A stretch of 64,000 nucleotides of DNA from Carpediemonas membranifera BICM. Taxonomy: Eukaryota; Protista; Fornicata. Shown here one piece after another: positions 8,484 through 35,261 of the stretch. How positions within the stretch are numbered: the stretch's first letter is position 1; every line of letters starts with the position of its first letter. The stretch is taken from contig JAHDYR010000011.1 in NCBI GenBank assembly GCA_019828565.1, positions 421,314-485,313 on the forward strand, read 5' to 3'. The position numbers and the translations under genes were made by a program. Below the pieces are notes generated by a model. The model had not been told where the DNA came from, made no database searches, and saw only the letters and a program-made list of their open reading frames with translations.

Positions 8484-8672
8484 AGCATAAAATGCACACT
8501 TGTGCATTCGAGTACAATGACGAAATCCCTCAATATGCTACCAGCAGTGCATTTAATAACCAATATCAACGCCGAAACGCGTGTAGTTCGGAGCCATGTA
8601 GTTGTTTGCGCTCGTTTGTCCCCCTATTACCGAAACTGGTGCTGTACTCTAGAAAATCACTAACAACATCAA
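8484..8672 (-). repeat. ~190-bp inverted repeat, copy 2 (partner 1815-2003)
   Basis: Reverse complement of 1815-2003. Confidence 0.95.
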
Positions 8673-8996: not shown

Positions 8997-11304
8997 TCAG
9001 ACGTATTTGGTGGGGGAACGTCTGTTGACTGTCGCCCATACGAGACGACGCCACGGAGGAATCGGTAAAAACAACTCGACCTGCTCCTTCAATATCGTTC
9101 TCTCAAGGACCATCTGGTTGCGCCTTAAGTGTACTCTACTTTCCTGATTGCCAATAAAGTCGCGCTCGAATGACTCCTCAATAATCCGGCCAAGTGGGAC
9201 TCGGATTTTTGACTGAATCTCCGGCAACACAGCAACTCGCGCTAAGCCATGAAGTGTGTCGATGGAGGGAGCCTTCTTGGCTACCTTAGACGGCGGCCGG
9301 ATTGGAATAGACTCCGACACGGTGCTGGTCGTGCTCAGACACATTGTCAGTGAAAAGAGGTGAACAAGCAACGCTGTCAGTCGATGCCAGGTGATAATAT
9401 CATCTGTGGCCTCCTCGTGAGAGTAATAATGCTCTTGCAGGTAGGCAACGAGTCTGAAAAAGTGGCTGAACGGGGGAGGGAATGCCATGTAGAGACCGTT
9501 TCCAATTGACGCGATCATCTTCCTCCCCTTCACTTGCTCATTACAGCCAGTCGTGCGACTGGGAGGTTCAAACTTAGCCAGCCTGGCGAGGTCAGCGTTT
9601 CTGGCCTTCTTGGTCTTGATTTCCTCCGGGGTAGAGTCTGGGTCGACCTCAATTGGCTTGAACATCCGACAAATGTTGTGTATCAAGGAGACGAAGTCAT
9701 GACTGAGGTGCATGATCGGCGGGACAAGGAAGATTTTGCCCCTATCGAGAGTTGGGTCATCCGAGTTCTCGAATAGGCTGGGCATGATGCACTTATTCTT
9801 CTTGTTGTAGAACGACCCCCACTTCTTCTCTCTATCCAGGACTGTCTTGTCCTCAACAGACATCTTCTTCGCATACATCACGTCTGCAATCGTGTTTCGT
9901 GGGGTGAGACCGAATGGGCTCCAGGCCTTGTTGTCAGCATGTACCGAGCTGAATGGAGAGGGATAGCTGCCGCCAATCAAGGTTCCACAGACTTTTGACA
10001 TCGCTGGGTGGTCTGCGATGAACATAACGCGAGTGACACGGCACAGGAGACCGGTATTTCTCACCTCAAGTGACTCGCGATGGGTACTCTCGACTGAGCG
10101 CTCGATGAAGTCGAAGAATTCTCCAATGCGCTTCTCTGGTCCGTTGTACTCGAGTATGCGGAAGGGTGGTGTTCCGCCTGACGGGAAGACTTTGCCGGAG
10201 ACATCGATAAACCGAACCTTCACAGATGTAGTCAACCCTCGCCATCCATCGACCCAGACGAGAAGATCAAGCGGCACTGTCTGAGTCTCTTCAGCTTGAG
10301 TCTGCGCTGTCAACTGCTTGCCCACGTTCTTACGAGCAGCCCTTGACCTCTCGAGATCGATAGGCGAAGCCACCGCCTGGCGATAGTACCGCATGAGGTC
10401 AAACTCAGCGTGTTGCACATGGGAATACCTGCCGCTAGACTGGAGACGCGGGTTGAGACCGGCTCTCTTCATCACGTCATTATGTGCAGTTCGCTTCATT
10501 GCCGATTCGTAGAAGATGCACACCGTCGTACCTCTGAGCACTTCAGTGTTATAGTCGTCGCCGTCGAATGTAGCGTTGACTTGTTCGAGGTCTGCGTCGA
10601 CGTGGGTAATCAGGTCGAGGTCATACTCGCGGTGATCCTTGTCCGTCCTCTTTGCTCGTGTCTCTTGAGTGATCGCCATGGGTATGTAGCCCTTTAGGGC
10701 CTTTTTCAAGTTCCTATGCGACTTGACAATGGTCTCAACGTCTGCGATGTTCCGAATGCTGCACTGAAGCGACTTGACTTGGTTTGTGACCTGATTGATG
10801 TTGATAATGTCAAGGTTGAGTCTCTGTGCAAGGGCTTGCATGATGTGAATCTCGTCATTGACTGCATTCACGCCGATCGTGATGGCCCTGAGCTCGTTGG
10901 ACACCTGCAGAAGACGTTCAGTGTCAGCAATACGCTTACGTAGACGAGCATTCTCTGCCTCGAGGCCGAAGCTATCAGAATGCAGAACATATGCACCAAC
11001 GTAAAGGTGACTGGGACCAGAGCGGTGTGCCTTCTTCTCCCTTTGAGATGCTAGTGGATGATGGCGCTGGGTAGAGATTGCTAGAAATAGCCTCACGCGA
11101 TACAGCGCCGATATTGATTAGTTCCTGCGCGATGCGGGCTAGCTCGAGCCTTTGCTGGTGTTTGGAGGTATCAAATCCGTTAATACGGCGATCCACTGCG
11201 TCAATCGAGAGCCAGACGCTGCAAAGGATGGTATTGATGTCATCAGTGCCCTCCGGAGCATAGATAGATCCGTTAGACAGTTTCCACTTCAGTTGAAGCG
11301 CCAT
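8997..11304 (-). CDS. RAG1/Transib/Chapaev(CMC)-like DDE transposase (ORF 8997-11096; likely N-terminus in ORF 10975-11304 via frameshift)
   Basis: Ordered motifs LLVWVDGW (D1), MFIADHPAMSKVCG..GGSYPSPFS (D2 plus degenerate CxxC), VPPIMH, and TLHGL..VPLGRIIEESFE (E; compare Transib TVHK..LPIGQLSEEAQE). N-terminal coiled coil. Confidence 0.7.
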
Positions 11305-13138: not shown

Positions 13139-13462
13139 AGTGCAGGCTAATACGCGCCCTTAAACTGTGGGATCAGCCGCTGGGTAAATATACTGAGAAA
13201 AACCATATAGCTGAGTTCACTGTCTTGTGCTGAATACGGTGGCGCCATTTATTTCTCTGAATCGCTAAGTTTTGTCAGCGTTGACCGCGCACGACCGGTC
13301 GTCCTTACGCGATGACACCCAGCCCATCTTGTAGGTCGGGTGGCCATACCTCGCGGCCTTGCTTGCTTTTCTTTGACGAGCAATATTCCCTGAGTAATAG
13401 CCTCTCCTTTTCTTCAATTCGACTCTAGCCAAGTCAAAAAAACAAGAAATCGACCATATCTC

Positions 13463-13566
13463 AAAATCTAACAGGTAGATTCACTCTGAAAGTGATTATG
13501 CGCATATGTACCTCCTTTCAACTACTCACATAATCACTATCGTAGTGAATCTACCTGTTAGATTTT
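13463..13566. repeat. Subterminal hairpin: 38-bp inverted arms, 28-bp spacer
   Basis: aaaatctaacaggtagattcact-ctgaa-agtgattatg (13463-13500) vs cataatcact-atcgt-agtgaatctacctgttagatttt (13529-13566); 3 mismatches. Confidence 0.93.
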
Positions 13567-13749
13567 CTGTTATTGTCCATTTTATCGTTTCGTCTTAACC
13601 TGCACGGCGAAATGCTCAAACCAGGCAAGGAGTCAGAGCCAGAGCTTCTTTCCATGCTCTAAGTACATCATATGGACTCTCAAGAAGACCTTCGTTTATC
13701 TCTAAATAGCTTAAATTTAATGAATACTTCATTTCTGAGCAAGAAATTG

Positions 13750-13809: not shown

Positions 13810-14074
13810 ATGTTGACAGCATGTTGCCGCCGCCAACGGAAGCGACGAGGAAGAAGAGCTCCTACGCATCGGAATGGAGCACGAGAGCGACGAACCAGAT
13901 CAAGAGATGCATGAGTAACGAGCCATACCAAAGCAGTGGAGGGAAGAGTGCAGAGTCTAAAGGGATGTGTATATATAGCACGTTAGTGTAGGACTAGGTG
14001 AAGTGAAGGCGCCGGAATAGGTGCAGCGTTGGAGCCCGCCAGAAGGGCTGTACTGGCGCCAATGCCCGGGTGAC

Positions 14075-14290
14075 TTTTCTTTTCTTAAAACCCCTGTTCC
14101 CCGCAGGGACCGGGGGGCGGGTAAGAGGCAGTTGGAACGCCATCGAGGACCCGCCTGTCCGGCAGGCTGGAACTCCAGCCTTGGGAGGGGCGCCGAAAGG
14201 AGTCGCTCCCACCTATGCGTAGTTAGGTAACGATGCTGCCAATGTGCGAGGCCAGAAGCGCTATAGAGACTGGCACGAAAGTCCCGACAA
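14075..14290 (+). other. Conserved multi-hairpin inter-ORF RNA structure (IRES-like candidate), LINE-A copy
   Basis: Pyrimidine tract then hairpins CCCTG/CAGGG, CCGG/CCGG, GGCTGG/CCAGCC, GGGAG/CTCCC, an AGGTAA stem and a GGCACGAA loop; same order as 24358-24560. Confidence 0.55.
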
Positions 14291-14645
14291 GCACCGCGAG
14301 GGCGCGGCCAGTGAAAGGGGTGGTACACCCTAGGTCAGCTCCAAGAGGGAACCTGGGCCACGTCTGGGGACTCTGGAGGAAGCAGCCGTTCTGGCCAAGC
14401 ACCCCATGTGAATGGCGCATGCTTCTGGGTCCTGGAGAAATATCAAGGGCAAAGAAGACGCCTACCCGGGCCGCCCACCAACAACCCACAGGGCGGGAAG
14501 CGGCCCACCCAACGTGCTAAACAACGACGACATAGGCGCTCACCCATTGGGAAGGCAACTATGCAGATGCTAAACCCCAACAACAAGATGAAAGTGTGCA
14601 GGTAGTGCAGAATAAGGAGTGCAGGTTAAGGCAGTAACAACCTGA

Positions 14646-17600
14646 ATGCGAATAGTCTCCCTTAACAGCCAAGGACACTTAACGGGCAATGAAGACTACA
14701 GCGGATCTATAGCGGTAGCGCTTCGCAAGCACACGAGCCCGGACGCCCTCCTCTTGCAGGAAACATTCAGGTACGGTAACTCCGTAGTCCCCTGTTGGGC
14801 GGACCTACAATACGCATGTGCAGGGCACGCCAAACCCATCAAGGCTCGAAAGGGCAAGATTAACCTAGGCGTAGCCACGGTGATCAGCCCACATTCACAG
14901 GCAACCTGGGATGTAGGAGTATCTGACGGCACGAACCCCCGAGTTCAAGTTAGCATCCTCGAAACCTCAAGGGCTATCGCAGTCATCAACATATACGCCC
15001 CTCCAAGTGACCGCAGCGCAGCGGAGCTAGACCGCTTCGACCAACAGCTGGAAAACATCGTCAGAGAGTACCACGGCTTCGAGATAATCATCATGGGGGA
15101 CTGGAACCGTGACCCGCGGAGCCTGCGCCATGCCACCAGCGCCACACTACAGCGAAACAATCTAGACCTAGTTTTCCCCTCGTCTCACACATACATGAGT
15201 GGGAATACCACCTCGACGCTGGATTATGCAGCTGTATCTGGGGGGATCACGAGGGCCAAAGCTAGAGTCATTGACAAAGCTGAGATGGGGCATTGGGGCT
15301 CCCCCCATAGGGCAGTGGAGCTAACCTGGGACGAACCGCATTGGAAGAAACAACCGGCCAAACCCAAGCTGGAAATCCCAGGAACAACCACCTGGAATGT
15401 CCTCCCAGAGCGCAACGGGGGAAAGGGCAAGGGAATGGCCGCAACCCGATGTGGAGCTCCATGTAGATACAATCGAGTACCAAATACGGGAACTCTTATC
15501 GGTGGGATTTCAAACTTCCGCTAGGAACGTCAGACCAGGGAGATCGCAAAAAAGGATCCCGGAGAACGTATGGAAGCAACTCATCCTAGCCCGATGGAAC
15601 AAAGCGGGGGCCGCGGAAATCAAGCGGACCCTGAACAACGAGCTCCAGAAGTCATGGAAAAGCTTCAAGGAGGAGTGGACGCAGCAGGTGGAAAACAGCG
15701 CAAGGGCAGGGTATAAGACCACCAAGAAGGTCATAGCAAACCAGGTCCACAGGTTCTGGAACGAGAAACAACACGCAGGGCTACCGGCGATGCTCAGAGG
15801 AAAGAGGTCGATCTTAACAAGGGAAAACGAGATAGCTAGGGAGCTGCAGAGGCAATACGCCCAAGTCAGTAGTGGCATAGCACCTAGTTGGGACCAGATC
15901 CCGGCGGCCCAAACAACTGATCAACCCCCCACGGAGGAGGAGGTCACGGCCACCATCAAGTCCCTGAAGAAATCATCGGCAGGAGGCCCGGATGGTATCA
16001 CGGGCGAATGTCTGAGAGACCTCCCCCAGGCGGCCTACAGGGCAATCACATGCCTCTTCCAGAAAGTATACGAGTCTGGGGAACTACCCACCACGTGGAA
16101 GTACGCCTCCATCTCCCCGATACACAAAGTAGGGAAAGATAAGCTACTGCCAGGATCCTACCGACCCATCTCACTCACCCCCTCCTCTACCGAGCATATG
16201 GGAAGGTACTCAAATGGAGGCTCAAACCAACAGTTGAGAGGCACACCCCCAGAGAGCAGATCGGCTTCATGAAGGGAAAGACAGTCATAGACCACATCGC
16301 CCTCCTAACCCAACTGCACCAAGAAGGAGACCGGACCAGCGTGCTGCTCGACATTGCAAAGGCGTACGACACGGTTCCCAGGGACATCCTAGTCAGCAAG
16401 CTGATCAATATGGGTGTACACCCCCACCTAGTCAGAGCAGTACAAAGCACAATGGAGAGGACCTACATTGCGGTAAGGGGATCCGACCTATGGTCCGAAA
16501 CGAACCTAGGAGTCAAGCAAGGTTGCGTGGTCGCCCCCACCCTATTCATACTATTTACGGCCAACTGGATTAGCCAGGCGTCACTCAGAATACAGTACGG
16601 CGAGATACCAGACCCGAAGCTTCCCCCCACCCACCACAGACCCGGGAATGGCATCATAGCAATGTTCGTAGACGATACGAGCATCTCGGCAAAGAAAGAA
16701 AATGATGCGGAGTCCCTCACCGCCGCAATGGTGGAAGTGATAGTGGCACACAAGCTGTGTATCAGCCCAGGAAAGAACATCGTCATAAGTACCAATCCAA
16801 ATGCGGAAGTGCGAATTCAAGGGGAGGCCACCCGAGCAGCGGAGTCAGGCCGATACTTGGGACTCTGGATAGCAAGTGGCCCTCATCCGCTCAGCGCATG
16901 CATCGCAAAAGAAAAGAGAACAGTCGAACAAGTACATCGCCCTCGCCCGGAGAGTGGGATGGACTAAAGGCTCCACGCCCGCGGCTGTCTCCGAGTCCAT
17001 CCTCCGCACCTTCCTATGGCCAAAGATCGAATTCGGAATCGAAATCTGGGGCCAAGTCCCAGGAGGCAGAAGGCTTTGGAACGACTGGCGAGGACTCATG
17101 GCGGGAACCGGACCCGGTGGAGGGGGTGTCGCCCGCCTGATGATGGGATGGATGTGCTGGGAAGCGGACATGGGTGTAAGAGCGGTTAGAATCCGCGAAT
17201 CGGCCCGGGACCCTGACCGCCCATCGCCCCTAGCGGACTTCGACTGGGGAAGAGCGAACCCCAAGTCCGTTATCGGAAAGCTGAACAAGTGGGCAGACAA
17301 CGTACTAGATCTGGCCCCTAGCGACCTTCACGGACCCAGACCCAGAGCAATAGCCGGGGGATGGAAGATGACAGCACGAGACATCGCCACCAAAGGTAGC
17401 CGAACAGCCAAGGCGGCCGCCGAAGTGCTAGCTGCGGAGGCAATGCAAACAATGGCAGGCGGGAGAGCACCCAAGAAACCAAAGATTATCAGAGGGGAGA
17501 TGATGCTCAGGAGGGAGCTGAAGAGGGTAGTTGCAACAGCCTCCAACACGCTCCCCTCCGCTAGCAACAGCCACACAACTCGAGGAGCCGCGCTCATCAT

Positions 17601-18018
17601 AAGCAGGAGGTACCCTGGGCAGGAAATGCTCTGCGACCGTATCCAAAGAATATGCCCGATATGCACACTCGCAGCCGAACGCGAATTGATCAACTACCTC
17701 CAACTATACCCCCCCCAGGCGCAGGCGCTAGTGGCAGTAGCCGGGTGGCTGGAAGACCAACCGCTAGGAACACAAAGCCACATCATAGCGGAGTGCCAGG
17801 GCGTCGGCCGCCCAAGTGGGTGGGAGCAGTGCTGGGAAGCTGCGGCAACACACACCATGGCAAGTAGGCTGCGGCACGGCCCAGATGGGGAGTGGTATAA
17901 CTCCAGGGCCATATTGGAGCTCCACTGGCTACTGCAACAGGAGGATGAAACAGTGAAGGAGGGTCTATTATGCGGGAAAAAGGCCCTCATGAACCTCAGA
18001 ACAGGCCCAGACCCCTAG
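14646..18018 (+). CDS. LINE-A ORF2: APE endonuclease, reverse transcriptase, C-terminal zinc finger (3 frameshifts)
   Basis: SLNSQG, LLQET, INIYAP, MGDWN, LDY, SPH; GPDGI, SYRPISL, LDIAKAYD, GVKQG, MFVDD, RYLGLW; CPIC..HIIAEC. Confidence 0.92.
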
Positions 18019-18990
18019 GAGGAAAGCCCTGGGTGAAGACAAGGCACAGGGCGGAACATTCCTGGAACCGGCGGGAGGTGTTTTCCCCCCACATGTTCCG
18101 GTAGCGCCAGGCGGAGGGAAGGCTGCAAAGGACCACTAAGGGACAACCGCATACAACAAGCACGAAATAGGGAAGGCCTGGCAAAACAGCTGGGCCAGTA
18201 GGGCGCAAGCGTCCGGACAAGCAGTCCGGCGCATCCCTCCGGCGCGCAAGGGGGTACCCCCTCCCCACACAGTGGGGGCGCACCAGGAGGATGATGCATG
18301 GCAGACTGGCGGAGGTACTGGATGACGCAAGAAGCTACCCACTCCGTCGGTAACCTGCCGGGAAGGCAGGGCCATCCTGATGTGGCCCGGCGCCTAGCCA
18401 GGAACACTGGAAGACGTGGCAACCGCCCCTGGGAGCTCCCCCGATAATGGGAACCTGGAGTGAAATCGGACAGCGCTAGATGAGCCCGAACGCAGCCGGC
18501 AAGTCCGTGGAAGTCTACCTACGCGGCGTCGGTGGGTTCCTAACCCGGCCCAGCTGGTACGGCGAACTCTAGACCCGACCCCGCCCTGGCGGGTGCCTGA
18601 AACATGGCGAGCGGGTCGAGGAAACTCCAGGACCTCCCTAGGGGACCCGGGGGAGAGGAGAAACGTACGGAAGGTCCCCTGACAGCAGCGTGCAGGGCAA
18701 GGCTTTGTAGGTGCCAGGCAGACCTGGGACCCAAAGGGCCCCTAAGAGTAAGACCTGGGTTAGCCTAACTTTGGGGGTATTAATGTGGCCATGTATAGGA
18801 TCCCTCTAGCGTACCAGCTAGGCCTTGACGGCCGTTGTTCACGCCCTCTTAGGAAGTGTTAGGTGTGCTCTGTAGAGGTACCAACACGCTTAGGCGTTCC
18901 TCGAAGGGGTGACACAAACTGTGACATTCAGCTTACACAGCAGGACGAGTAGCAGGACACATTAAATTCTTTCTTCTTCTTTCTTCTTCT

Positions 18991-20511
18991 GTTGCCCTGT
19001 TCATCGAAAGAGATGTCGCCTCTCGTCAGGCCGAAGATCTCGCCTCCCCGGCTGACTGAGATGAATGTAAGTGCAGCGAACAGCGCTACCTGGAACGCTT
19101 TCGGTGAGGAGCGTCGCCTGTCGACGACCTTGCGGACCTGGGCTCTGGTCACCGGTAGTGCGCCTCCTGTTAGGCCGTCGAGAGATGCTACGTTCTCCGC
19201 ACTCTTGATGATCTGCCTGGCTTCTGGCGGAGGTCGCCAGTTGGAGACGAGTGGAGCCGCTTGACAGATCCAGTAGCCCTTTCTGTGGATACTCTGCGGG
19301 CCAGTGGTCTCGCCCTCGGCGAGGAGGAATGCTCTGAGTTGTTCGGCGTCGGAGAGGGCTGCCTGTCGCGATAGGACGAACTTAGAGACCCAGCCAGCCG
19401 CTGAGCGGCGCGATGACTCGTTTCGGAAGTGAGATAGCCTGTCGTGGCGGAGGAGTTCGTCGAACGGGTCTTGACGATCATCGCAATCATTCTGATCTTT
19501 CCTTGCCTCTCGGTCCAGGATAGCTCCGTGTTGAGCATGTGCGAGGAGTGGACTCTGAGATACATCTTGTGTTGGGACAGCCGTTTCAGCGCTCTGACTT
19601 CGGGTGAGTTGAGATCGGGGAAGAGGAGTATTGCCGCTGACCTCCACGTCCGAGGGGACGTAGTCGGGGTCTGAGGCGTCCGAATCTTCTCCAGACGACG
19701 ATGTGCCGCTCCCAAGAGCGCTGTCGGCGGAGCCAGATAGATCCTGGCGCCGGTCCAGGAGCGCTGGAAGCCGTGATCGTCGAGGGACCAAGCTTTCCTG
19801 ACGAATCCTGGCAGTGCGAGCTTCTTGTCCGGAGATGCAGTGACGTCTATCTCCGCCGGACCCCACTTGGCCATTATCGTCTCGAGTACCTCGCGGGGTG
19901 AGTGCCAATCGAGCTTTGCGAATCTCGACAGCCGGTCCGCCTGGACATTGAGGTGCCCTGCGATATGGAAGCAGTGAATATCGACATTCTTCGTGTTCGC
20001 CGTGGTGAAGATATCCTGCAGGAGTCGAATGGCCGTGTCGGCGAGACATGGGGAGCCCTGGCGGTTGACCCATGCGATGGCCGCGGTGTTGTCCGAAAAG
20101 ATAGCTAGTTGGGTCCTGGTGCGCTGGGTTGGGGTGAGCTTGATAGCCTGGCCAATCGCGTAGAGCTCCTTGACTCCGATATGAGAGTCTCGGAACTCGG
20201 GAGGAAAGCGGCCTTGAGCCGAGCGGCCCTGGTCGCCGTTGAATAGGCAGGCGCCCCACGCGAAGGAGGACGCGTCGGATGCGACCGAGAGCTGGAGTTC
20301 GTCCTTGATCTCCCAGTCTGCCCTGGCCTGAGCGAAGGGTCTGGATGGACGATCTCTGAGCAGCGCTAGCCAGCTGTTGAGCTGGCGACGCATCTGCTGC
20401 GAGATGTGAAGCGTCGGGGCGGGATGTAGGGCCTGGAGTGATCTGAGCTGGAGCCTGGCGAACTGTGTCGTACTTGCGAAGAACGAGAGGCGGCCTAGTA
20501 GGCGTTGCCAC
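18991..20511 (-). CDS. DIRS tyrosine recombinase frame (N-terminal part, cut by LINE-A insertion)
   Basis: ALPVTRAQV...ALFAALTFISVSRGGEIFGLTRGDISF (first catalytic Arg box); overlaps the RT/RH frame as is typical of DIRS. Confidence 0.8.
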
Positions 20512-20629
20512 TCGGTTGCATCGATCCTGCCGGCCCTGAGGGCCTGCTCGATTGATGTTGCATAGCGATCGGCTCTGTCCTTGGAAATCTGCAGTGTCTC
20601 GGCGGCTGTGTTGATGGTGACTCCTAGGT
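19188..20629 (-). CDS. DIRS pol C-terminal part: RT thumb, RNase H, Dam-like methyltransferase domain
   Basis: LLGRLSF; SDASSFAWGA, HIGVKELYAI, FSDN, HIAGHLNVQADRLSR; WGPAEIDVTAS..SW..IYLAPP. Confidence 0.9.
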
Positions 20630-20630
20630 G

Positions 20631-23600
20631 GCAGCTTGGTGCAAGACAGGAGTCAACACGGAGGGCAGAGGCGCAATAAGGGCACAAGGACAGGAGACGC
20701 CGCTCAGCAACAAGCTCGTCTTCTCTGACGTCAGGGCCAGGGTGATCAATGCCACCAGCCGCCGCCAAAAGAGGGACAGGGAAGAAGAGTCAGACAACGA
20801 GAGCGGCGCACAGACCAGCCAAGAGGAAGACCCCAAACCCAAGGTCGTGTTGACACAAGCGGAAGGAGTGAGCGCCAGAAGGGGCCTTGGAGCCGAGCTT
20901 GATCAGCAGGAAGAAGAGAGCATACCCCGAGCATCAGAGGGAAGTGCATCAGCAGGGAGCCTACCGGAGGCATTGCAGAGTCAGGGTCAGAAGAAGCTCA
21001 TCCTCGGTTCTAGCGACTTCGAGTGTGGAGATCCTGGGAGTGAGAGGGCAGGGATCAGTGCGGTGCCGACAGAGGGGGGGCTCGTGCTAGTGGACGTCGA
21101 GACGGGGGAGGTCGTTGGCCATGGCCACGGCCTCTTCTATGAGCCCAACCTGCCGGCCAACAAGGTGGACCAGAGCAGATACGCGACGTGGGCAGTGACG
21201 GGGATTCCCCCAGCGACGTTCGTGGAAGTGGACACAGGGGAGGTGCCGATGGACTATCAGCAGCACTTCAGCAGATTTAGAGAGTGGGCCACGCGGCTCG
21301 CAGCCAAGCTGAGAAAGAAAGAAAGAAATTTATGGTGCTTGGATTCTGACCCCGGACTGAGCTTGTTTCCCGTTGTCTTGGAGCTGAGTGCCCCGGGGTA
21401 CTGCCTATTTCCCGTGGCAAACTGGTCAGCAGCGTTTGCCTTGGGCTTTCGGTGCTACTGTCTCCGCGGAAAGCCGATTCCAATCGCCCCAGAGGCCCTG
21501 CGGCCATCTCCGTGCAAATATGCTTTCCTGTCTCCCTGAAAGTCCGGCAACTATCCGGGGAGCCTGGGGGTCTGTCCTCGGGGCATTGACAGGCAGGATC
21601 GTCCTGCAGAACCTTGACTATGACACTCCTTGCTTCCCTGCAGTCCTTGTAGAGCCGTTCAGCCACGGCACCCTCTCGTCTGTCCGGTTCCCCAATTCCA
21701 TGCCCCCTCGACTCTGTTAAGAAGCCTACCCGAAGGCGGGGAAAGTGACTAAGTCCATGCTGTCTACCCCGGTTAGGTGGCGTGGGTCAGGGCATGGGTG
21801 GTGTACCCCCAGGCACTAGGCCTGGTTGTCCTGTTACCCCTTACAACATTTCGCTTGCACTACATGTCCTTGGTTTCCCATGTCGTTAACAAGGGCGGCA
21901 GGGGCACCTGTGCCCCTCCGACCCCCGTGGCCAGTCCCTGCAGTTTCCTTGGGGTCCCAACGAGTGGTGCAACCATATGAATATGGATTTCCTTGACCTT
22001 ATCCTTGCTCTGTCCTTGTTGCATGTCCTTTCTTTCTTATTTCTGATCTGTCCTTCCCTGTTCTTTCCTTGCAGTCGTTCCTTCCCTTGCTTTGGTTCCT
22101 GGCTACCGGGATACGTGGGGCCTTTCCTCACTGATCCCAGGAGCTTAGCACCCAGCGAGGGTGGTCCATGGCTGATTCCTTGTCCATCCCTTCCCGGTCC
22201 TGGAGTCAGGGGTTCATGACATGCTTCTATTCCACCTTGAAGCTGTTGTAAACCTTTGCCAGTTCCCGTAGTCCTGCCGTGAGGCCTTCCCAAATGTCCT
22301 CCGAGCCCCATATTATTAGTTGCAGCCAAGCTGAGAGACAGAGAGACCAGGGAGAACTGGAAGCTAGTCCTTCATGCCAAGGGCGTCCACATGGAGAAGT
22401 TCCTCCTGACGAACGAGGTCAACGGGCTCAACAGGGACACCAGGGACTTCTTTAGAATGAGGCTGGTGGACGATAGCGAGCTGGCCGACGCCATCGAGGA
22501 GCTCGCCCCGGATAAGGCAAGAGAGTACAGGGCAAACTACGAGATCAAGAACTACAGGGAGATGGCAGATATATGGGCCAGCCAATGGCAGCGCAGGGAG
22601 CTCCCGAAGGGGGCCTGTCCGTACCACAGGCACACTGCAGGGTGCTACCATTGTGCGCTGGCAGATGCAACGTTGTTCGCGGCGAAGGTGTGGGGCATGA
22701 TGCTGAAGAAGATGAGCACGCCGGATCTGGAGAGTGCGATGGGTAACGCTTTCAACAGCATGTATGACACGGTCAGGGACGCAGGGATCAGAGACGACCT
22801 CTGCGGAGGCAACGGAGTAGCGTACAGGCGTGAGACCTTCAACATCTTCGGAGGGCACCCGTACGGCAACAGCAGGGACCTAAGCAGGGAAGAGGGCGAC
22901 CGCATCCTAGTGGTCCCGGACAACGATCACTGCTATGGGATCGGCTTCGGATTCAGCGAGGTCATTAAGGGTATGAAGGGCATTCTATTGGCCCCAACCA
23001 CGGTCATGGAGAGAGGAGTCACCACGAGAGTCCCCATATGGTCGATCCATGAGAACACGACCCACATTCAGAGACTGATGTTGCAGGGAAGAGCTGGCAG
23101 GGCAGTTACTAGGGACGAGGACATCGTCACCATCGCGATGGTCTACAGCTGGTGGCCCTCAAGGGAGGATACTGCTCATCAGGGTCAGCCGGGAGTCCAC
23201 GACCTGGCAGAGAGCGTCAGACGCGAGGAGAAAGCCATAGCGAACGTCAGGGCACCCCCAGGGTATAGCGCAACCATCAGAGCGGCCTTCATCCCGAGAG
23301 ACTGGGGGCTGTATCAGGGTCAGAGAGGCAGGGACGACACTGGGACGGATGAAGAAGGTGGGGACCCGTATGGTGTCCACGACCATCCCGCCAGAGGATA
23401 ACTGCAAGATCACCCAGAGGCCGACGGTTAAGTACATCCCGTCAAGAGATGGAAAGGAGGAGAGACCCTACACGGTCGATTACTCGGACATGGGCATAGA
23501 GGGATCTATCAGACGGCTCACCGAGATGATTGGCACGCCGGTCGGGCCAGTAGGCCGAGATGACCTCTATACCAACAACCGCCGAGCCGACGGAACCCTC

Positions 23601-24311
23601 AGAGACGAGAGAGAGCCCAGAAACAACGGCGTCCATCGGTGCGACAGAGAGCGCAGGGACGTCAGGCCTCATCATGAGGACAGAGAGCGCAGGGACGACG
23701 GGCCTCACCATGAGGACAGGGAGCGCAGAGAGGTCAGGCCTCACCACGAGGACAGAGAGCGCAGGGACGACGGGCCTCACCATGAGGACAGAGAGCGCAG
23801 GGACGATCAGGGCAGATACTCCGGAGAGAGCAGACGCCGCTCACCCCCTCATGGGACCGGCAAGAGGAGTGGCAAGGACAGGGCGGTGAGCTACACAGGG
23901 GCTGGAAAGAGGGGCAAGCTCGACGGCGACGCCCGTTACGAGGCTGGAAGCAGACAGTCGAGTGACAGCGACGCGGAGAGGGACGAACTCAGGAAGGAAC
24001 TTGATGAAGCCAAGAAGCTGATTCTCGCACTCAGGGCCAGGGACAGCAGGGAGGAGGAGCAGGCGACGCCAACCCCAGCACCGGCTGACACCCAGGGAAA
24101 CCAGGGTACCGGCAAGGAGCACAGGGTAGTCCGTCACAAGAAGAGGACTCGGACAAAGAGGTCTCGCAAGCCGAGACAGCTAAACCAGATGGAGCTAGTG
24201 GCCCAGATCGTGTCAACGGTGATGAAGACCATGCAGCAACAACAGGGGATGGCAACCGAGAACCAGAGCGATGATGGCAGTGACAGTGGCAACTCAACGG
24301 AGACCGATTAA
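20631..24311 (+). CDS. LINE-B ORF1 (interrupted by LINE-C at 21315-22321; one frameshift near 23305)
   Basis: Removing LINE-C and one TSD joins RLAAKLR|DRETRENWK..HMEKFLL in frame. Continues into ORF 23349-24311 across a G5 run. Confidence 0.8.
21315..22321 (-). mobile_element. LINE-C: 5'-truncated antisense copy of a LINE-B relative (end of ORF2 + 3' UTR)
   Basis: TSD GCAGCCAAGCTGAGA at 21300-21314 and 22322-22336. The - strand encodes GSEDIWEGLTAGLRELAKVYNSF* (compare LINE-B GSEEIWEGLRAGLRALAKVYDSY). Ends caccataaat(ttct)n. Confidence 0.93.
23643..23806 (+). repeat. 36-bp tandem repeat x4.5 within ORF1 (DRERRDxxPHHE)
   Basis: gacagagagcgcagggacg..ggcctcaccatgag units with two alternating variants. 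Confidence 0.95.
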
Positions 24312-24357
24312 GCAGGGTAAAGTGGTATTCTTTGAGAGTGATAGTGACAGTTGTCAG

Positions 24358-24560
24358 TTCTTTTCTTTTAATCCAACCCTGGCTCCCACCCAGGGTCCGG
24401 CATTAGCTGAAATGCACTGCCGGTGGGCTGTGGCGGCAGCCAAAGGGGGGTCACGCCAATGCGCCCCCTCCTAAGTATCCCTGCCCGAAGGTAAGGATGG
24501 TCACCAGGGTAACCCATAGTTGGCCCGCCATGGGTAACCGGAGCCGGCACGAAGGCCCCG
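24358..24560 (+). other. Conserved multi-hairpin inter-ORF RNA structure (IRES-like candidate), LINE-B copy
   Basis: Same ordered hairpin series as 14075-14290, with different loops and altered stems. Confidence 0.55.
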
Positions 24561-24628
24561 TGACGGGACAAGGGCAGATTGCAGGGAATTTCCGAAAATT
24601 CGCAGGATAGGAAAGACGGAGTACAAGA

Positions 24629-27600
24629 ATGGAAACGATCAAGATAGCGAGCCTGAACACTGAGGGACACATCGGGAAGGGAAAGGACTTCACGGCCTCA
24701 ATGGCAACGGCTATAAGGATGAAACTGAGCGACACAGATGCAGTATGCATCCAAGAAACGTGGAGGACGGCGAATACGAGGGTACACAACTTCATAGACT
24801 TCGACTACGCAATGGCAGGGAAGGAAACAGAGGAGGAGCTAGCTATGGACAACGAGAGGAGGAAGAAAGAAGCCCAAAGCCAGCGCCGAATAGATGCCCA
24901 GCTGGGCATAGCAGGGAGCAGTAGCCGGACGCCCAGGACGAGGGGTACTAGAGAAGGAGTGGGCACAATCATCAACCCAAGAGCAAGAGGGAGCTGGGAC
25001 GTAGGCATCACAGATAGCTTATCAGGGAGGATACAGGTGAGCATACTCAGAACCCATAGGGACATCCTGGTGATCAACGTGTATGGCCCACCGGTCGGCC
25101 ACGGAAGGGAGGAGAAGGACGAGTTCAGGGACGGAATAAGGAGCATTATGGAGATGAAAGGAGAGATGGAAACAATCATCATAGGGGACTGGAACCTCGA
25201 CCCCAAAAGGATAGCCACAATGGCAAGATGGAAGGACCTGATCAGGGACTATAAGCTGGGAGCAGTGATCCCCATGGAAGGTACCCTCACCAAGGGAACT
25301 ACCACTCCGGACTTCGCGCTGGTATCATCAGGGATCAGAGGAGCAAGGATAGAAGTACTGGATGCTAGTCGACTCGGAGTCTGGGGGTCAGCCCACAACA
25401 TGATAAGACTGGAATGGAGGGAACAACGGATCCAACGGACTACAAAGAGAGAGGAAGTCCTAGACATACCGGGCGTCAGAGTGTGGAACATGAGGAAGAA
25501 GGCTGAACGCACATCAGTCAGAAGACTGCACCGTTTTAAGAGCCTGGATGAGTGGGAGGAGGATATCAGGAAGGATATGGGCGAGCCGTCAGGTCACCCA
25601 GGCAGTGGAGACAGGGAAGAGGTCATCAAAGAAAAGGTGTGGTCAGAACTCCGGCACACACCATGGACAGAAGAGGGAAACAAGACCAGAAGTGAGATCA
25701 TGAAGCGTGAGCTACAGGCCTTCTGGGGAAAACGCAGGGAAGAGTGGATCCAGGACCTCAGCCGGAGCGCGAAGGAAGGATACAAAGCATCCAGGTCCAT
25801 GGTGGAAGCAGCGGTAAGAAGATGGTGGTGTGAAAACCAGTTCAAGGGCATGCCAGAGAGCATACTGAAGGACGGGAAGATTACCACCAACAAGGAAGAA
25901 ATAGGTAAGATCCTCCTACAACAGTATGCAGGAGTGAGCAGGGGCAGGGAACCGGAGTGGAAGGATAGAGGCAATGGAAAGAGGGAGGACGAATTTAAGG
26001 AGAGAGAAATACGAGAAGCGATCAGAAGGATAAAGAGGGACACTGCACCGGGACCGGACCACACTACAGGGGACATGCTCAGGGACACAGATGACCAGGG
26101 GATCGCTCAGATAACTAGGCTCATGAACAGGGTATACAGGGAGGGCAAGATCCCGACAGCATGGAAGTATGCTACAGTCTCGGCCATCCACAAGACAGGG
26201 AAGCCCAGAGTGAAGCCGGAGTCGTACAGACCCATCTCGCTAACACCACTACTGTATAGGGTGTATGGTAGGCTCCTGAAGAGAAGATTAGAAGCAGCCA
26301 CATGGCACCTCATCCCAAGAGAGCAAGCAGGGTTCCAATCGGATAAGGACGTAATACAACAGATACAATACATCGTGCAGAGACACCAGGAAGGGGGGGA
26401 GACCACGTCGATCTTCCTAGACATAGAGAAAGCCTATGACACCGTCCCGAGGGACATCCTCATGGATAAGCTGCAGGGAATGGGGGTCGAAGACCACCTC
26501 ATCAGGGCAATACAGAGTACACTAGAAGAGACATGGATCTCGGTGAAGGGGGCAGGGTCATGGGAGAGAACAAACAGGGGAGTGAAACAAGGATGTGTCC
26601 TAGCGCCGACCCTGTTCGTTTTTTTCATGGCAAACTGGCCTCACCTGGTCAGGAAGAAGCATCAGGGACAAGAGTACGATATCAGGGAACCACCAACGGA
26701 GTTACCAAGAGTCCGGGACACGCTGCCGGCCACCCTAACCATGTTCGTGGACGATACAGCGGTCACAGGGGAGACACCGGAAAAGAGCAAGATAGTGGCG
26801 AACCTAGTCATAGAAGTTATCAAGGAGCACCTCATGAGGGCAAATGCACAAAAGAGTGAGATGATCAGTGTAGACAGGGCAGCAGTGGCGAGAGTGGGGG
26901 AGTTACCCTAATGGCAAAGAGGAAGCTAAGTACCTAGGTCTCTGGATAGCCAGCGGAAAAGACCCACTGGCAGCCTGTATCAGAAAGAAGCGGGAGCAGA
27001 GCGAAAGGTACAAGAAGCTAGTGAGAAGAGTGGGATGGACCAGAGGCAACATGCCGGCGCTAGCCAGCAGGCTCCTCCTCGAAGTTTACATATGGCCGAG
27101 GATAATGTTTGGAGTGGAGGTGTGGGGCTACGCAGCAGGGGGGAACAAGATATGGACGGATTGGCAGGGCATCATGGCCGGAACAGGCCCAGGTGGGGGC
27201 TCGGTCATGCGCATCTTGAACGGATGGATGGACCTGCAAGCCCACCTGGAGATGCTAGCAGTCAAGAGGATCGTGACAAGCAGGGGCCAGGATATACCAA
27301 TCAGAGACAGGGTCTGGAAGGAGGGATCGATTATGTGGAAAGCCAGGGACTCAGTGAACGCACTCCTCAGAGGAACAAGAGAGGGAGCAACGAATGCAGG
27401 GAAGATAGACTTTGGTAGGGAGATGGTAAGAATGAACTGGACCAGGAGGTGCAAGAGCAAGACAGCGGTGGGGCTCATGGAAGTCCTAGGACCCAAACGT
27501 ATGGGAAAGTGCATGGCGGGGAAACCGGCCATAAGTAGGAAGACAGGGAAGTGGCAGTCAAGGGCAGAGTGGAAAAGGATAGTGTCGGTGGCAGCGAATG

Positions 27601-28076
27601 TCAGCCCGTCTCCATCATCAGCGGAAAGGGGAGAAGGCCCAGAGCGAGCGCTGGCGGACCTGGCGATGGGTGAGGAACTCAAACACAAGATACAAAGGAG
27701 GTGCCCCCTGTGCACAAAGGAGAGCGAGATAGAGTTACTGTGGCAAATAGCGAGAGAGCAGCCAAACCAAGCCAGGAAGCAGGCACTAATCAGGGAGTGG
27801 GTAAGGGGTCAGCCGCTGGGATCGGCGGCCCACATTATGTGTGAGTGCCCAGAGGTTGAAAGAGGAGATGACTGGGAAAAGATATGGAAGACAGCTAAGG
27901 AGAGGACCAGGGAATTGCAAGTCAGAAGAGGCCCGAATGGGAGGTGGTATGAGAAGAGGCCAATCTTAGAGGTGCAACAACTAGTGTTAACAGGGTCGGA
28001 AGAGATATGGGAAGGACTGCGAGCTGGGCTGAGAGCCCTGGCAAAGGTCTATGATAGCTATAGAATAGATGGATAG
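24629..28076 (+). CDS. LINE-B ORF2: APE endonuclease, reverse transcriptase, zinc finger (one frameshift near 26908)
   Basis: SLNTEG, CIQETW, INVYGP, IGDWN, PDF, SAH; APGPD, SYRPISL, QAGF, LDIEKAYD, GVKQG, MFVDD, KYLGLW; CPLC..HIMCEC. Confidence 0.95.
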
Positions 28077-28850
28077 ATAAGGAACACCACATCCAGAAAG
28101 GGGGCAGGGAAGCATAGACTCTGGGATCAAGGGGAGACCCCCATGTTTCCCAGGGAGAGGGCAGGGCCAGGGACAGAGGAAATCCATCAATTGGATGGTT
28201 GCACCACTCGCGGTGAACCTAAGGAAACTGCAGGGACTGAGCATGGGATACGGGGGACATGACGTCCCCGCCGCCCTTGTGAACGATAGAGGGACGCTGG
28301 GAAGTGTAGCACAAGAGAACTATCATAAGGGGTACTAGGCCTTGCAGATCTAGAGTCTGTGTTAGCCCTAGCCCACGCCGCCTAACAGGGGGTAGATGAG
28401 AGGGACTTAGTTGCTTTCTCCGCCCACGGGTAGGCCACTTAACAGGGTCGTGGGGGCACTGAACAGGGAATCTGGAAAGAGGAGAGGGTGCCATGCTTGA
28501 ACGACCCCGTAGGGACTGCAGGGAATCAGGGAGTGCTATAGAGAAGGTCTTGCAGGACAAACCTGCCTGTGGAAGCACCGAGGACAGACCCCCAGGCTCC
28601 CTGGAAGCTGCCGGGTTTACAGGGAGACAGGAAAGCGCTCAGCGCACGGAGATGGCGAAGGCCTATGGGGGGAAGTGAAATCGGGAGTGAGCGGAAGCAG
28701 TAGCACCGAATCGCTCGTTGGACGCAGCTGACAAGTTCAATCGCAGGGAGGAGGCAGCGCCCCGGGGAACTCGGCTCCAGTAATAAGGGAGATCAGCCTA
28801 AGTAACCGGGGCCCGATACCAGGCACCATAAATTTTCCTTCTTTCTTTCT

Positions 28851-29574
28851 TGGTGACTCCTAGGTACTCCAGGCGTTGTGTGGGAGTTAGGATGCACTTG
28901 TTGAGCCCTGGGATAGCTCCCAGCGACCTCATGAGCGCGACTATTTGGGGAGCGGCGTCTGCTAGGTGGCGACGTGACCGATGTGAGATGAGAAAGTCGT
29001 CGAGGTACACCGCTATTGTCACGTTGAAGCGGTTCGCGAGTATCTTTGCTAGCTGGATGGACGTAGACTGGAACACGAACGGGGCAGCGGTCCAGCCGAA
29101 CCCTAGTGTGTTGTATCTGTACGCCTGCCCGTTCGGGAGGACGATCCCCAGTAGCGTGGAGTCGGTCGGAGCCACACCCATCTGGTGGTAGCCGGAGGCT
29201 AAGTCGATCTTGAGCATGAAGTCGTTGCGCTTGAGGTTGCGCACTGCTCGTTTTAGGCCGAAGAGCCGGAAGACCCGCGTCTCCGCAGTGATTGCGTTGA
29301 GGTCGCGTAGGTCGTGTACCGGGCGGACATCGTGCTCGCCCTTTGCAACCGCGAAGAGCGGGGCACTGTGCCGGAGTTGCCCGCTGGTACAGGGTGAGAT
29401 CACGCCAAGTCGGACCATCTCGTCGAGCTTTGGGGTGAGCCGTGGGTCCAGGCGCCGTTGTGGCGTGGGTGGCGGGGGAGTGCCTGTTAGCTTGATAGGT
29501 ACGCCGTGACGGAGCCAGCCGACCACCTCGTCCGAGGCGCCGAGCCTTTCCCATAACCACCACCTCGCGTTCAT
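28851..29574 (-). CDS. DIRS reverse transcriptase, N-terminal part
   Basis: RPVHDLRDLN, KIDLASGYHQ, LGFGWTAAP, VYLDDFLI, EYLG. Confidence 0.92.
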
Positions 29575-29600
29575 CGACGGGAATTGATGAACAGAGGTTG

Positions 29601-30155
29601 TTATGTTCTCTTCTTCTTGTGAAACCCCCCCATGTTACCGTTGGTGTCCTTACGCCTGCCCTTAGAGCGGGCCTTCGCTGCGCAGTAAGCGATGGTGCGT
29701 CTGCTCTTGCTTTCTGTGCTGTTGAAGAGGTCCTGAAACAGCTCGGTCGTGGCATCGGACCAGTTATCATCTTTGAGGTCTAGGACCATTCTACGAGCCT
29801 GTAGTTCGAGAAGAAGACGTTGTTTCGTCGCGGAATCTGGGAGAGCACTAGTGATCACGACAACGCGTTGAAGCCACTTCGCTTCTGCCTTGAGAGGTCT
29901 CTTGCTTGGTAACTCCGAGAAGGTGTCCATCTCTGCCAGAGTTGCATCTATGTCCTCCATCGTGTCCTCCTCCAACGATTCGGAGGTATTGAACCTAGCA
30001 ACGGTGGAACTTTCGAGCATTTCGTCGTCAGGTTCTTTCTCTGGCGGAGGCGGAGGAGCAAGCCTGTTCAGGGCTTCGGACATGGAATTGATTGAAGCTT
30101 CTAGCTTATCTAAGCGTGTTGCCGTCGGATCCGGCGGATCCGAACCTTGCGCCAT
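29601..30155 (-). CDS. DIRS ORF1 (gag-like)
   Basis: ORF from MAQGSDPP immediately upstream of the RT; the listed ORF's extension to 30299 runs into the Gypsy LTR. Confidence 0.7.
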   Translation of the reverse strand: MAQGSDPPDPTATRLDKLEASINSMSEALNRLAPPPPPEKEPDDEMLESSTVARFNTSESLEEDTMEDIDATLAEMDTFSELPSKRPLKAEAKWLQRVVVITSALPDSATKQRLLLELQARRMVLDLKDDNWSDATTELFQDLFNSTESKSRRTIAYCAAKARSKGRRKDTNGNMGGFHKKKRT

Positions 30156-30237
30156 TCTGTCCGCATAAACTGCGTGACTCGCCTGACCGGCGAAACACCT
30201 TTTGCCCGGAGTGAGGCTATCGCATCGCCCTCCGCTC

Positions 30238-30324
30238 TTTGGCGTATAAAGCGCTGTGGATGGTACTTCATTTAGATTAAATACACACACTAAATACACA
30301 TCAACTGATTACGAAATCACAACA
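30238..30324 (-). repeat. 3' LTR (87 bp)
   Basis: Identical to 34675-34761; TGTTGTG...CGCCAAA on the - strand. Confidence 0.97.
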
Positions 30325-33300: not shown

Positions 33301-34658
33301 AGTAACTTCGCATCGAAGAGGGCCATCGTCTCGGAGTTGTTGGCGGAGATCATGATGTGTCCCGAGGGACGAGTTGCCGGGAATAGGTCCTTAGTCATAT
33401 CAGACCACTCACGCAGACGTAGGTAAGAAGCCTCACTGCACTGATCAGCAAGGGCGGGGAGGTGGGTCTCGTGACCATCGATCGTTATGACAACGTTGGC
33501 GGGCTGGCTATGAGTACCGATGGCGTTCGAATGGCCGCGCTCCGGAGGGTTCGGGTTCAGATAACACTTGTCAGTCGAGTGCTTACCCCACTTCTTGTGG
33601 AATGGACACCACACGAAGCCCTCGCCGGGACTGACCGACTTGTCAGTGAGATCAGCGATGACAGTGGACGAACCCTTAGCAGAGGTTTGACCAGTGGGTG
33701 CGACAACCTGAGTCTGGGCCGAGGAGGGACCAGTTTGATGAACCTCGGGCTTGGGCTTGACCGTGGGAACGAAGGGTTCAGGCTTCTTGGCAGAGGAACT
33801 GTCAGGCTTGACAGTCGACGATGTCTCAAACTCAATGAGTCGAGCGCGAGTATCCACAAGGACGCGAGCATCTTCGAGTCGTTCCTCGTTGGCGACCATG
33901 TCTGCCAGGATTTCATCGAAAGCAGACTTGCCTAAACGGGCAATCCGGGACCAATGGGCTTGTAGGGTCTTCGGCAAGGTGGCCTTGATAACAGAGGAGA
34001 GAGCCTTCTCGGAGTAGGAGTCTCGCATGCCTAGGATGCGGACGATGAGTGATACACGGTGCGCAAACTTCGCAAGGGCGATCGAGTTGGCGGTTGCTGA
34101 AGGCTTAGCGGCTTCCAAGAACTTGGAGAGCCAAGCCTCGACGATGAGATTGTCGTCGGGCAACACGGCCTGAGAGATAAGGGAATTCAGAGCTTCGTTC
34201 AGACTGTCCCGAGCTTGGGTGTAAGTGACCTCACTCTCCGGAGTGACGTAAGCCTCTTTGCCCTGGGCGAGCTTAAGGACGGCAGAGACCCTGGTGAATT
34301 GAGGCAGTAGGGAGATGGTCCCCAAATGAGGGAGCAACGAAGCGGCGATCGAAGCAACATTGGGATGCTTGATAAGGTGTGCGTCATAGTCGAGGATCAA
34401 GCGGAACCACCCTTCCTTCGAGGAGGGGAGAGCGCAATGGAAAATCTGGCGTTCGATCGATCCCGGCTTGAAGTCGCAGGGGAAGAGCTTAAAGATAGTC
34501 TCGAAAGACTCAAGGCATGAAGAATCAAGCGTGGAATCCGAATCAGGGACATCATGGGCACGAACATCGGGCTTCTTCGCGAGAGAACTCACGAGAGTGA
34601 CCAGATTACCTATAGTCTCTTCTAGTGCCGCTATACGAGCGTCATAATCGGACTGCAT
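30309..34658 (-). CDS. Gypsy gag-pol polyprotein (three homopolymer frameshifts near 32678, 31998, 30782)
   Basis: Knuckle CPFH..H..C; protease LADQCS; RT DLRSGYHQ, YVDD; RH TDASGYGLG; IN H..H..CGIC, IDAIGP, SDNG, AERANR; GPF; chromodomain YVVESVVSH..RWSGYEPEEDT. Confidence 0.93.
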
Positions 34659-34674
34659 AGCTCAAATTGATCAA

Positions 34675-34761
34675 TTTGGCGTATAAAGCGCTGTGGATGG
34701 TACTTCATTTAGATTAAATACACACACTAAATACACATCAACTGATTACGAAATCACAACA
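34675..34761 (-). repeat. 5' LTR (87 bp)
   Basis: Identical to 30238-30324. Confidence 0.97.
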
Positions 34762-35261
34762 CGCTCCGGGCCCGTTACCCGAGGTAACCTTACTGACGAT
34801 GTAGCGCCAGGAAGGCAGCGAGAACAGCGTCGGCATGGCTCCGTGTGTCTGGAGGCTCGGGTCCACTTCGCACAAATTTTTATTGCTCACCTGTATGTGG
34901 GATGTCGAAACCGCGAAAGTAACGTCTGGGAGGCGCACTCATTGTCTCTGAGGATCAGTACCGCCCGAAGAACGGGCCATCTATCACGCTACGCCCAAAC
35001 GGGCGCAGTTGTGAGAGGGTTAATCTACCGACTGAGCTAAAGGGACCCGTGTGACACAGTTGAGCAAAAACCGCACGCGGAAAATGGTTTTAACTCTAAC
35101 TAATAACTGTGACACGCCCACTGTGGTTTACATACGACTTTACCTTACCTTACGATACATGGCAATATGTTAGCTAGACCGCTATGCGCAGCATATGGCC
35201 TTGTATCTGCCCTGTTTGACCACCGCGTGATCGTATCGAACTGATGTTGTCCAGAAAACTC

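Follow-up and report, generated by a model that had tools for sequence, protein, structure and literature searches.

The stretch of DNA analysed here (the window, 64,000 nucleotides of a contig of Carpediemonas membranifera, a free-living, anaerobic fornicate) is gene-dense and eukaryotic, and contains three LINE copies, the principal features of which are collected in Table 1. LINE-B possesses everything expected of an APE-type LINE, namely an ORF1, an ORF2 with APE and RT domains, a 3' tail and a target duplication, and it lies within the RT of a DIRS-like element. LINE-C, the third copy, is a 5'-truncated element on the minus strand, nested inside LINE-B ORF1 and flanked by a 15-bp duplication of its own. 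In LINE-A, ORF2 (start codon ATG 14646) and the tail are the only such APE-type features, in addition to which there is a long 3' UTR; no target duplication was found, and the only open stretch upstream, 33 codons before position 13918, resembles none of the three ORF1 ends compared. As LINE-A is thus without a demonstrable ORF1, both that ORF1 and the 5' limit of its 727-nt "spacer" are putative. An earlier note on this DNA had placed a structured RNA between ORF1 and ORF2 of both LINE-A and LINE-B. This placement holds for LINE-B, the ORF1 of which is homologous to that of a related element (L009, below) and which was inserted as one unit with its 15-bp duplication; it is putative for LINE-A, with its 33-codon stretch, lack of ORF1 similarity and lack of a target duplication.

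Table 1. Features of LINE-A and LINE-B and of the spacers upstream of their ORF2 (positions in the window; hairpins are predicted)
Feature	Position	Strand	Remarks
LINE-A ORF2	14646..18018	+	APE endonuclease, RT, C-terminal Cys/His motif; spread over four frames
LINE-A 3' UTR	18019..18990	+	terminates in TAAA, then (TTC)n tail
LINE-B	20630..28851	+	single insertion; 15-bp target duplication 20615-20629 / 28851-28865; 5'-truncated within ORF1
LINE-B ORF1	3' part 22337..24311; 5' part 20630-21311	+	one frameshift; homologue of L009 ORF1
LINE-B ORF2	24629..28076	+	APE, RT, Cys/His motif; one frameshift near 26900
LINE-B 3' UTR	28077..28851	+	terminates in TAAA, then (TTTC)n
A, U-rich pyrimidine tract	14074..14090	+	ends TTAAAA; TTAA 14085; TAAA 14086-14089, the inferred host poly(A) signal
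A, hairpin 1	14092..14108	+	CCCUG/CAGGG, C-rich loop; CCCTG 14092, CAGGG 14104; A and B only
A, hairpin 2	14110..14162	+	CCGG/CCGG base (14110, 14159), 45-nt interior; A and B only
A, hairpin 3	14164..14181	+	GGCUG/CAGCC; GGCTG 14165, CAGCC 14176; core common to four elements
A, hairpin 4	14182..14211	+	G-rich/C-rich stem; core common to four elements
A, AGGTAA segment with upstream AUG	14212..14241	+	AGGTAA 14225; predicted pairing with ORF2 start region 14630-14655, A only
A, GGCACGAA block	14268..14291	+	GGCACGAA 14272; GACU/AGUC flanks, GACAAG; also in B; hairpin not favoured in A; candidate
B, TAAA	24318..24321	+	GTAAA context, 6 nt past ORF1 stop; candidate internal poly(A) signal
B, U-rich tract	24358..24372	+	ends TTAAT; TTAA 24368
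B, hairpin 1	24376-24396	+	CCCTG 24377, CAGGG 24391
B, hairpin 2	24397-24423	+	CCGG 24397, 24420
B, hairpin 3	24426-24441	+	GGCTG 24426, CAGCC 24437; core common to four elements
B, hairpin 4	24444-24472	+	core common to four elements
B, AGGTAA and GGCACGAA blocks	24476..24572	+	AGGTAA 24489; GGCACGAA hairpin 24543-24556 (GGCACGAA 24546); GACAAG 24567; shared with A only; candidate

The nearest named proteins to the two ORF2 products come from Carpediemonas membranifera itself: one (P0006) equals LINE-B over its first 80 aa and another (P0005) is 58% identical, which together indicate that other copies and subfamilies exist; of the proteins with a solved structure, human L1 ORF2p is the best match (E 1e-14). 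The ORF2 proteins of LINE-A and LINE-B are 42% identical to each other, and their four-fold degenerate sites are saturated (55 of 205 identical, i.e. 26.8% versus 28.4% expected). A scan for RTs in metagenome contigs confirmed at least 320 of 555 candidates, and among the best 80 that were kept we recovered four close loci, two of which (L009 and L010) represent one element at two sites and one of which (L011) has no upstream DNA; as only these 80 were kept, further members of the clade may be hidden among the remainder, P0171 being one such protein. In a quick tree of 40 unlabelled rows, from which we omitted L010, L011 and any locus whose RT match was short or interrupted, LINE-A, LINE-B, L008 and L009 form a single long-branch group (SH-aLRT 100, branch length 1.62) with L008 and L009 as sisters, and four-fold sites are saturated in all six pairs of these elements (27-31% identity). 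L009 encodes an ORF1 with 31-34% amino acid identity to that of LINE-B, confirming the two-ORF layout. The ORF1 of this clade is long, with about 890 aa in LINE-B and at least 1074 aa in L009 (L009:3-3227), and contains a Cys/His cluster, with no match to a Pfam family and no usable match to an Atlas cluster. Other searches confirmed none of 273 candidates from an endonuclease-pattern scan of metagenome contigs, none of 193 from an RT scan of viral contigs and one of 136 from prokaryote genomes, the last without upstream DNA.

Several other elements and features were noted in the window. What we take, from its motifs, to be the DIRS-like element, with gag, RT, RNase H, methyltransferase-like and tyrosine-recombinase-like parts, occupies 18991-20664 and 28798-30308 on the minus strand; it is split by LINE-B and abutted by the 3' end of LINE-A, with both LINEs antisense to it, and the element found at its 5' end (30238-34762) is of the Gypsy LTR type, with repeats of about 90 nt. 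The ends of L008-L010, too, seem to fall within sequence of a retroelement-like character, and a preference of the clade for insertion into other elements is possible. An AT-rich, MITE-like inverted repeat (13447-13582; 54-bp arms, 85% complementary) gives weak covariance matches to miRNA families, far below gathering. A pair of 190-nt inverted repeats, 97% identical and about 6.5 kb apart (1815-2003 and 8484-8672), near which lies a 706-aa ORF on the minus strand (8997-11117) with no Pfam match, possibly constitutes, along with this ORF, a DNA transposon. Host introns, as seen by eye at 49307-49338 and near 50330-50430, appear to be very short (about 29-33 nt) and to have the form GTWWGT...YAG.

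The spacers measure 727 nt in LINE-A and 317 nt in LINE-B, in keeping with the earlier estimates of about 730 and 320 nt, and 405 and 276 nt in L008 and L009, respectively. The pyrimidine tract with TTAA and all the hairpin motifs that had been described for LINE-A and LINE-B are indeed present in both, and in the order given (Table 1). A covariance model built from LINE-B alone, using its RNAalifold fold, was run without filters and with rough calibration over both strands of the 64 kb window (128 kb); it returned LINE-A as the top non-self match with 22.7 bits (E about 1e-6), as against 10.0 bits for the best match outside both elements. This match spans only the U tract and hairpins 1-4. 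Given the saturation of four-fold sites, non-coding similarity kept between LINE-A and LINE-B needs selection. At the level of sequence, the similarity score of the two spacers was reached by 1 of 500 shuffles with the U tract and 19 of 500 without it; taken by sequence alone, hairpins 1-4 are not significant (260 and 409 of 1000 shuffles), nor is the region 3' of hairpin 4 by itself (64-659 of 1000 shuffles reach its score), and, taken whole, the spacers show no exceptional folding (z -0.4 to -1.7). Folding of the separate motif regions gives hairpins 1-4 ensemble probabilities of 0.56-1.00, which fall in the whole-spacer folds to 0.40 for hairpin 2 and 0.47 for hairpin 4 of LINE-B. The remaining two motifs fare less well as structures: the helix predicted for the supposed AGGTAA stem differs between the two elements (p <=0.26 in LINE-A), and the GGCACGAA hairpin is predicted in LINE-B (p 0.29-0.88) and not in LINE-A (p <=0.05), even as the GGCACGAA octamer is invariant between them and flanked by two double changes.

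The spacers of L008 and L009 have a U-rich tract and, immediately 3' of it, two hairpins similar to hairpins 3 and 4, without hairpins 1 and 2, the AGGTAA block or the GGCACGAA block; a 6-mer of the octamer recurs in L008, with the full octamer absent from both, and both covariance models miss these two elements. A descriptor drawn from features of LINE-A and LINE-B only (a U tract, a 5-bp stem with at least three of five positions like GGCUG and an adjoining GGGRG stem) matched four times in 941,404 bases (the window and 86 loci, on both strands), precisely in the four spacers on the sense strand; relieving hairpin 3 of its sequence constraint added one locus, and a tighter version matched none of 2000 shuffles of each spacer, though, as the descriptors were written after the folds of L008 and L009 had been seen, the choice of hairpins 3 and 4 is post hoc and these counts are not probabilities. 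Counting pairs across the four spacers by coordinates, all 20 cells of hairpin 3 are Watson-Crick, with two of the five pairs changed on both sides, and all 20 cells of pairs 1-5 of hairpin 4 are paired, among which there is one double change, the neighbouring pairs adding another two; with L008 and L009 being sisters these paired changes represent few independent events, and four sequences are too few for formally significant covariation. There are no invariant unpaired nucleotides common to all four elements, and the descriptor did not find the core in the 3' UTRs or the rest of the elements. Beyond the clade, motif scans of viral contigs gave only six chance matches, four of them in one phage coding sequence, along with ten further matches that were all rejected by model R1; model R2 yielded a single match (E 2.1) over 76 distant LINE loci (361,231 bases).

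Based on the conservation across saturated elements and the base-pair swaps in hairpins 3 and 4 over four elements, the selected RNA structure posited in the earlier note is supported, and what was observed there is mostly real, with a conserved core smaller than was drawn, comprising the U-rich tract and the two hairpins that follow it in L008 and L009. Hairpins 1 and 2 and the AGGTAA and GGCACGAA blocks would then be accessory modules of LINE-A and LINE-B.

Two further sequence features of these elements deserve record. A CYGCCA motif occurs 3' of hairpin 4 in all four spacers (24525-24533 in LINE-B, 14236-14244 in LINE-A, L009:3402-3410 and L008:2080-2097), and in L008 and L009 it is the loop that caps a long hairpin; an AUG follows it after 0-9 nt, in the ORF2 frame in LINE-B, L008 and L009, and in L008 this frame stays open across the entire structured region. 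The motif, which reached no significance in the test made, could mark an upstream start. Separately, the 3' UTRs of LINE-B (28150-28851, plus strand) and LINE-C (21312-22020, minus strand) are 73% identical over about 700 nt, without clear codon periodicity, the stretch right after the stop being unalignable. Their consensus fold has an energy of -175 kcal/mol, compared with -135 +/- 9 in 40 column shuffles, and includes 27 double changes, where the shuffles have 10.8 on average and 18 at most; this region, which has no Rfam match, is likely to be a second, larger conserved RNA.

Examination of the sequences around stop codons brought out a tetranucleotide, TAAA. It occurs, mostly as WTAAA, in the flanks of 12 of 13 host ORFs, at most 70 nt from the stop codon, and only three times in 21,738 nt of host coding sequence, where 17.4 occurrences are expected and the minimum in 200 synonymous shuffles is nine; the LINE ORFs of the window likewise have three against 14.1 expected. 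Outside the window, L008 shows no depletion (9 versus 9.0). It also stands just before the tail at all six LINE 3' ends and is the sole TAAA in four of the six 3' UTRs. On account of its placement after host stops and before LINE tails, and its depletion in coding sequence, TAAA is likely to be the poly(A) signal of this host. The tandem tails that follow it in LINE-A, -B and -C, L008, L009 and L011 are short and specific to the element, of the types (TTC)n, (TTTC)n, (TTCA)n and (TCAAA)n, and a GGGGGAAG motif was seen by eye in the 3' UTRs of LINE-B, L008, L009 and L011. Each of the four spacers, too, has a TAAA in the interval from the ORF1 stop to where the U tract ends (at +6, +18, +39/+167 and +66), with a joint chance of roughly 1e-4 at the rate in the elements' other non-coding sequence, a post hoc figure. 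A probable host signal thus lies 3' of the ORF1 stop in every spacer, in a weak context in two of them, lending the RNA processing suggested as an alternative in the earlier note an unexpected form.

How might ORF2 be translated in these elements? Its start lies 276-727 nt past the ORF1 stop, and the AUGs that lie past the tract and ahead of this start (nine in LINE-A, four in LINE-B, three in L009 and six in L008) have not been avoided, which argues against scanning. LINEs are marked by cis preference, and ORF2 would on that account be read from the full-length bicistronic RNA; plain reinitiation followed by scanning is unlikely to be able to cross such spacers, which would leave the ribosome-loading role to the one conserved non-coding feature. 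No shared non-coding feature other than the core was found in the spacer, and we tentatively propose, by elimination, that the U-rich tract and its two adjoining predicted hairpins form a putative IRES-like element by which ribosomes would be brought to ORF2 on the full-length RNA. The TAAA just upstream may in addition release some ORF1-only mRNA, which is compatible with such a role. In Giardia, a fornicate relative of this host, scanning is reported to be absent and a viral IRES to be functional (PMC3066225).

The geometry of the spacers constrains the form that such an element could take. Hairpin 4 is separated from the homologous ORF2 AUG by 435 nt in LINE-A, 157 in LINE-B, 175 in L009 and 252 in L008, and the core lies 64-115 nt from the ORF1 stop in L009, LINE-B and L008 and 247 nt from it in LINE-A. 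With so variable a distance to the AUG (157-435 nt), and no pairing there that the elements have in common, an IRES of the direct-placement type, such as the HCV or dicistrovirus IGR kind, is disfavoured. In LINE-A the 30-nt segment 3' of hairpin 4 pairs best with the region of the ORF2 start (rank 2 of 379 overlapping windows, p 0.97). This predicted helix might loop out the additional length or might just as well conceal the AUG; it is not common to the group, the corresponding ranks being 176 of 324, 294 of 343 and 234 of 327 in LINE-B, L008 and L009. Pairing of the U tract with the region before the AUG is not special either (ranks 76-197 of 340-408), and kissing of the hairpin 3 loop with downstream sequence, sought by eye, has no partners in homologous places. 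A ribosome shunt or looping was likewise rejected, as the ORF1 stop is not predicted to come near the ORF2 start (32 of 60, 42 of 60, 43 of 60 and 8 of 25 shuffles bring them as close or closer), and so was stop-start coupling as in SART1 or TURBS, there being neither overlap nor adjacency across spacers of 276-727 nt.

The main rival of the IRES-like reading is one in which the element tunes a leaky internal poly(A) site that would end an ORF1-only mRNA, with the hairpins setting the frequency of read-through; the two roles are compatible. We consider it a lesser possibility, despite its drawing on the distribution of TAAA in host flanks, coding sequence, LINE 3' ends and the four spacers, and according with AWUAAA, which is reported as the ancestral signal in use in trichomonads in a source that does not mention Carpediemonas (PMC11529991). 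The sites of LINE-B and L009 are in a GTAAA context, seen at one of 12 host sites, and the first site of LINE-A is CTAAA, a form tolerated in coding sequence; further, L008 is without TAAA depletion, U-rich stretches raise the chance occurrence of TAAA, and the same source reports no U-rich downstream element in the metamonads it covers, Giardia and trichomonads, with Carpediemonas outside its scope (PMC11529991). A poly(A) site leaves the translation of ORF2 unexplained. That both hold at once, i.e. that an undescribed compact IRES of tract and tandem hairpins is coupled to a leaky internal poly(A) site so as to split the LINE bicistron, is a combination that we deem unlikely on present evidence; were it the case, ORF1-only mRNA would be abundant and ribosomes would be loaded onto ORF2 of the transcript that reads through, in a lineage of which the relative that has been studied is reported to be unable to scan. 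The tract and hairpins might instead be bound by ORF1p or ORF2p, nucleating the particle or marking full-length RNA for packaging. A compact core of two hairpins, conserved in stem sequence and free in its loops, would suit recognition by a protein, and another large structured RNA is probably kept in the 3' UTR of these elements; against this, the core recurs neither in the 3' UTRs nor elsewhere in the elements, and we hold such a binding site to be improbable. We give as little credence to an ORF2 translated from its own subgenomic mRNA, arising by an internal promoter or splicing, with the hairpins in its leader. In LINE-A and LINE-B the pyrimidine tract, TTAA and CAG/G resemble a 3' splice site, and a donor-like AG/GTAA lies 29 nt before a YAG, matching host intron length (about 29-33 nt); moreover, EhLINE1 of Entamoeba is said to make separate ORF1 and ORF2 transcripts. 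The two candidate sites, however, do not match the GTWWGT with which host introns start (by eye), the donor block is missing from L008 and L009, and the paired changes point to RNA structure rather than to a DNA promoter.

The earlier note had also raised a ribozyme, and a self-cleaving RNA of a new class that frees the ORF2 RNA would find a foothold in the invariance of the GGCACGAA octamer between LINE-A and LINE-B amidst two double changes, and in the HDV-like ribozymes that many LINEs reportedly carry. The tests made render it highly improbable. Rfam 15, a search of which had been suggested, matched no family at the gathering threshold in any spacer (best <=20 bits, far below). Using descriptors and patterns for these classes, we found in LINE-A or LINE-B no strict match to the HDV-like fold (a nested double pseudoknot P1-P2-P3-P1.1-P4, with the L3 motif and the catalytic C in J4/2) and no conserved core of the hammerhead, twister, pistol or hairpin ribozymes. 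A relaxed HDV-like fold was missing from the sense strand of LINE-B, though 25 of 30 background chunks gave one, and in LINE-A it arose only from folds using the U tract as L3. The octamer is missing from L008 and L009, its hairpin is not favoured in LINE-A, and the four elements share no invariant unpaired nucleotides; the ribozyme candidacy thus finds no support. A tRNA-like fold was not found, nor was a bacterial-type terminator in LINE-B. As for chance resemblance or unselected residual homology, short hairpins form easily in GC-rich RNA and the similarity by sequence alone is weak without the U tract (19 of 500 shuffles); set against the saturated neutral sites, the covariance-model E of 1e-6 and the descriptor matches in four of four spacers, with none in 2000 shuffles per spacer, this is the explanation to which we assign hardly any weight.

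Among known systems, the HDV-like ribozymes of L1Tc/ingi, R2 and RTE, reportedly described in LINEs by Ruminski in 2011, are comparable in being structured RNAs upstream of the RT frame of a non-LTR element. They lie at the 5' end and adopt a nested double pseudoknot, whereas none was found here by the descriptor on LINE-A and LINE-B or by Rfam. As to LINE clades, LINE-A, LINE-B, L008 and L009 occupy a long branch of their own in the 40-row tree and have an ORF1 without a Pfam or Atlas match, and no named clade that fits was assigned. We found no conserved inter-ORF RNA fold in a LINE in Rfam or in the literature searched, which included few subscription papers; the genome paper of Carpediemonas membranifera does not contain "retrotranspos", "transposable" or "ribozyme" in its main text, or "retrotranspos" or "transpos" in 10 of its supplements.

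The L1 elements of mouse and human resemble those described here in being bicistronic APE-RT LINEs with non-overlapping ORFs and in facing the same ORF2-start problem (PMC4091050, PMC2881922, PMC5972666). In human L1, the best-studied LINE, the inter-ORF element is reported not to be needed, and the claim of an IRES upstream of ORF2 in mouse L1 is doubted (PMC4091050, PMC2881922). Scanning or unconventional reinitiation has been proposed over the L1 spacer of 63 nt (PMC4091050, PMC5972666, PMC2881922), which is dispensable by these accounts; the present spacers, in contrast, are 276-727 nt long with several AUGs and a conserved hairpin core, and L1-type scanning reinitiation fits them poorly. 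The UAAUG stop-start of SART1 and the TURBS of caliciviruses are alike in that an RNA structure close to where the two ORFs meet is proposed to favour translation of the second (PMC5972666); here the ORF2 start does not overlap the stop of ORF1, the core is within a long spacer, and UGGGA is found in LINE-A only, 3' of the stop. The Giardiavirus IRES offers a likeness, by description only, in that internal initiation is reported in a fornicate host without scanning, the difference being that it is viral and covers the 5' UTR and coding region (PMC3066225). The probable host poly(A) signal is a by-product of this analysis. With the translation of LINE ORF2 unsettled even for L1, a core of about 70 nt with natural compensatory variants is directly testable, and would open a way to study how translation starts and how 3' ends are formed in free-living metamonads.
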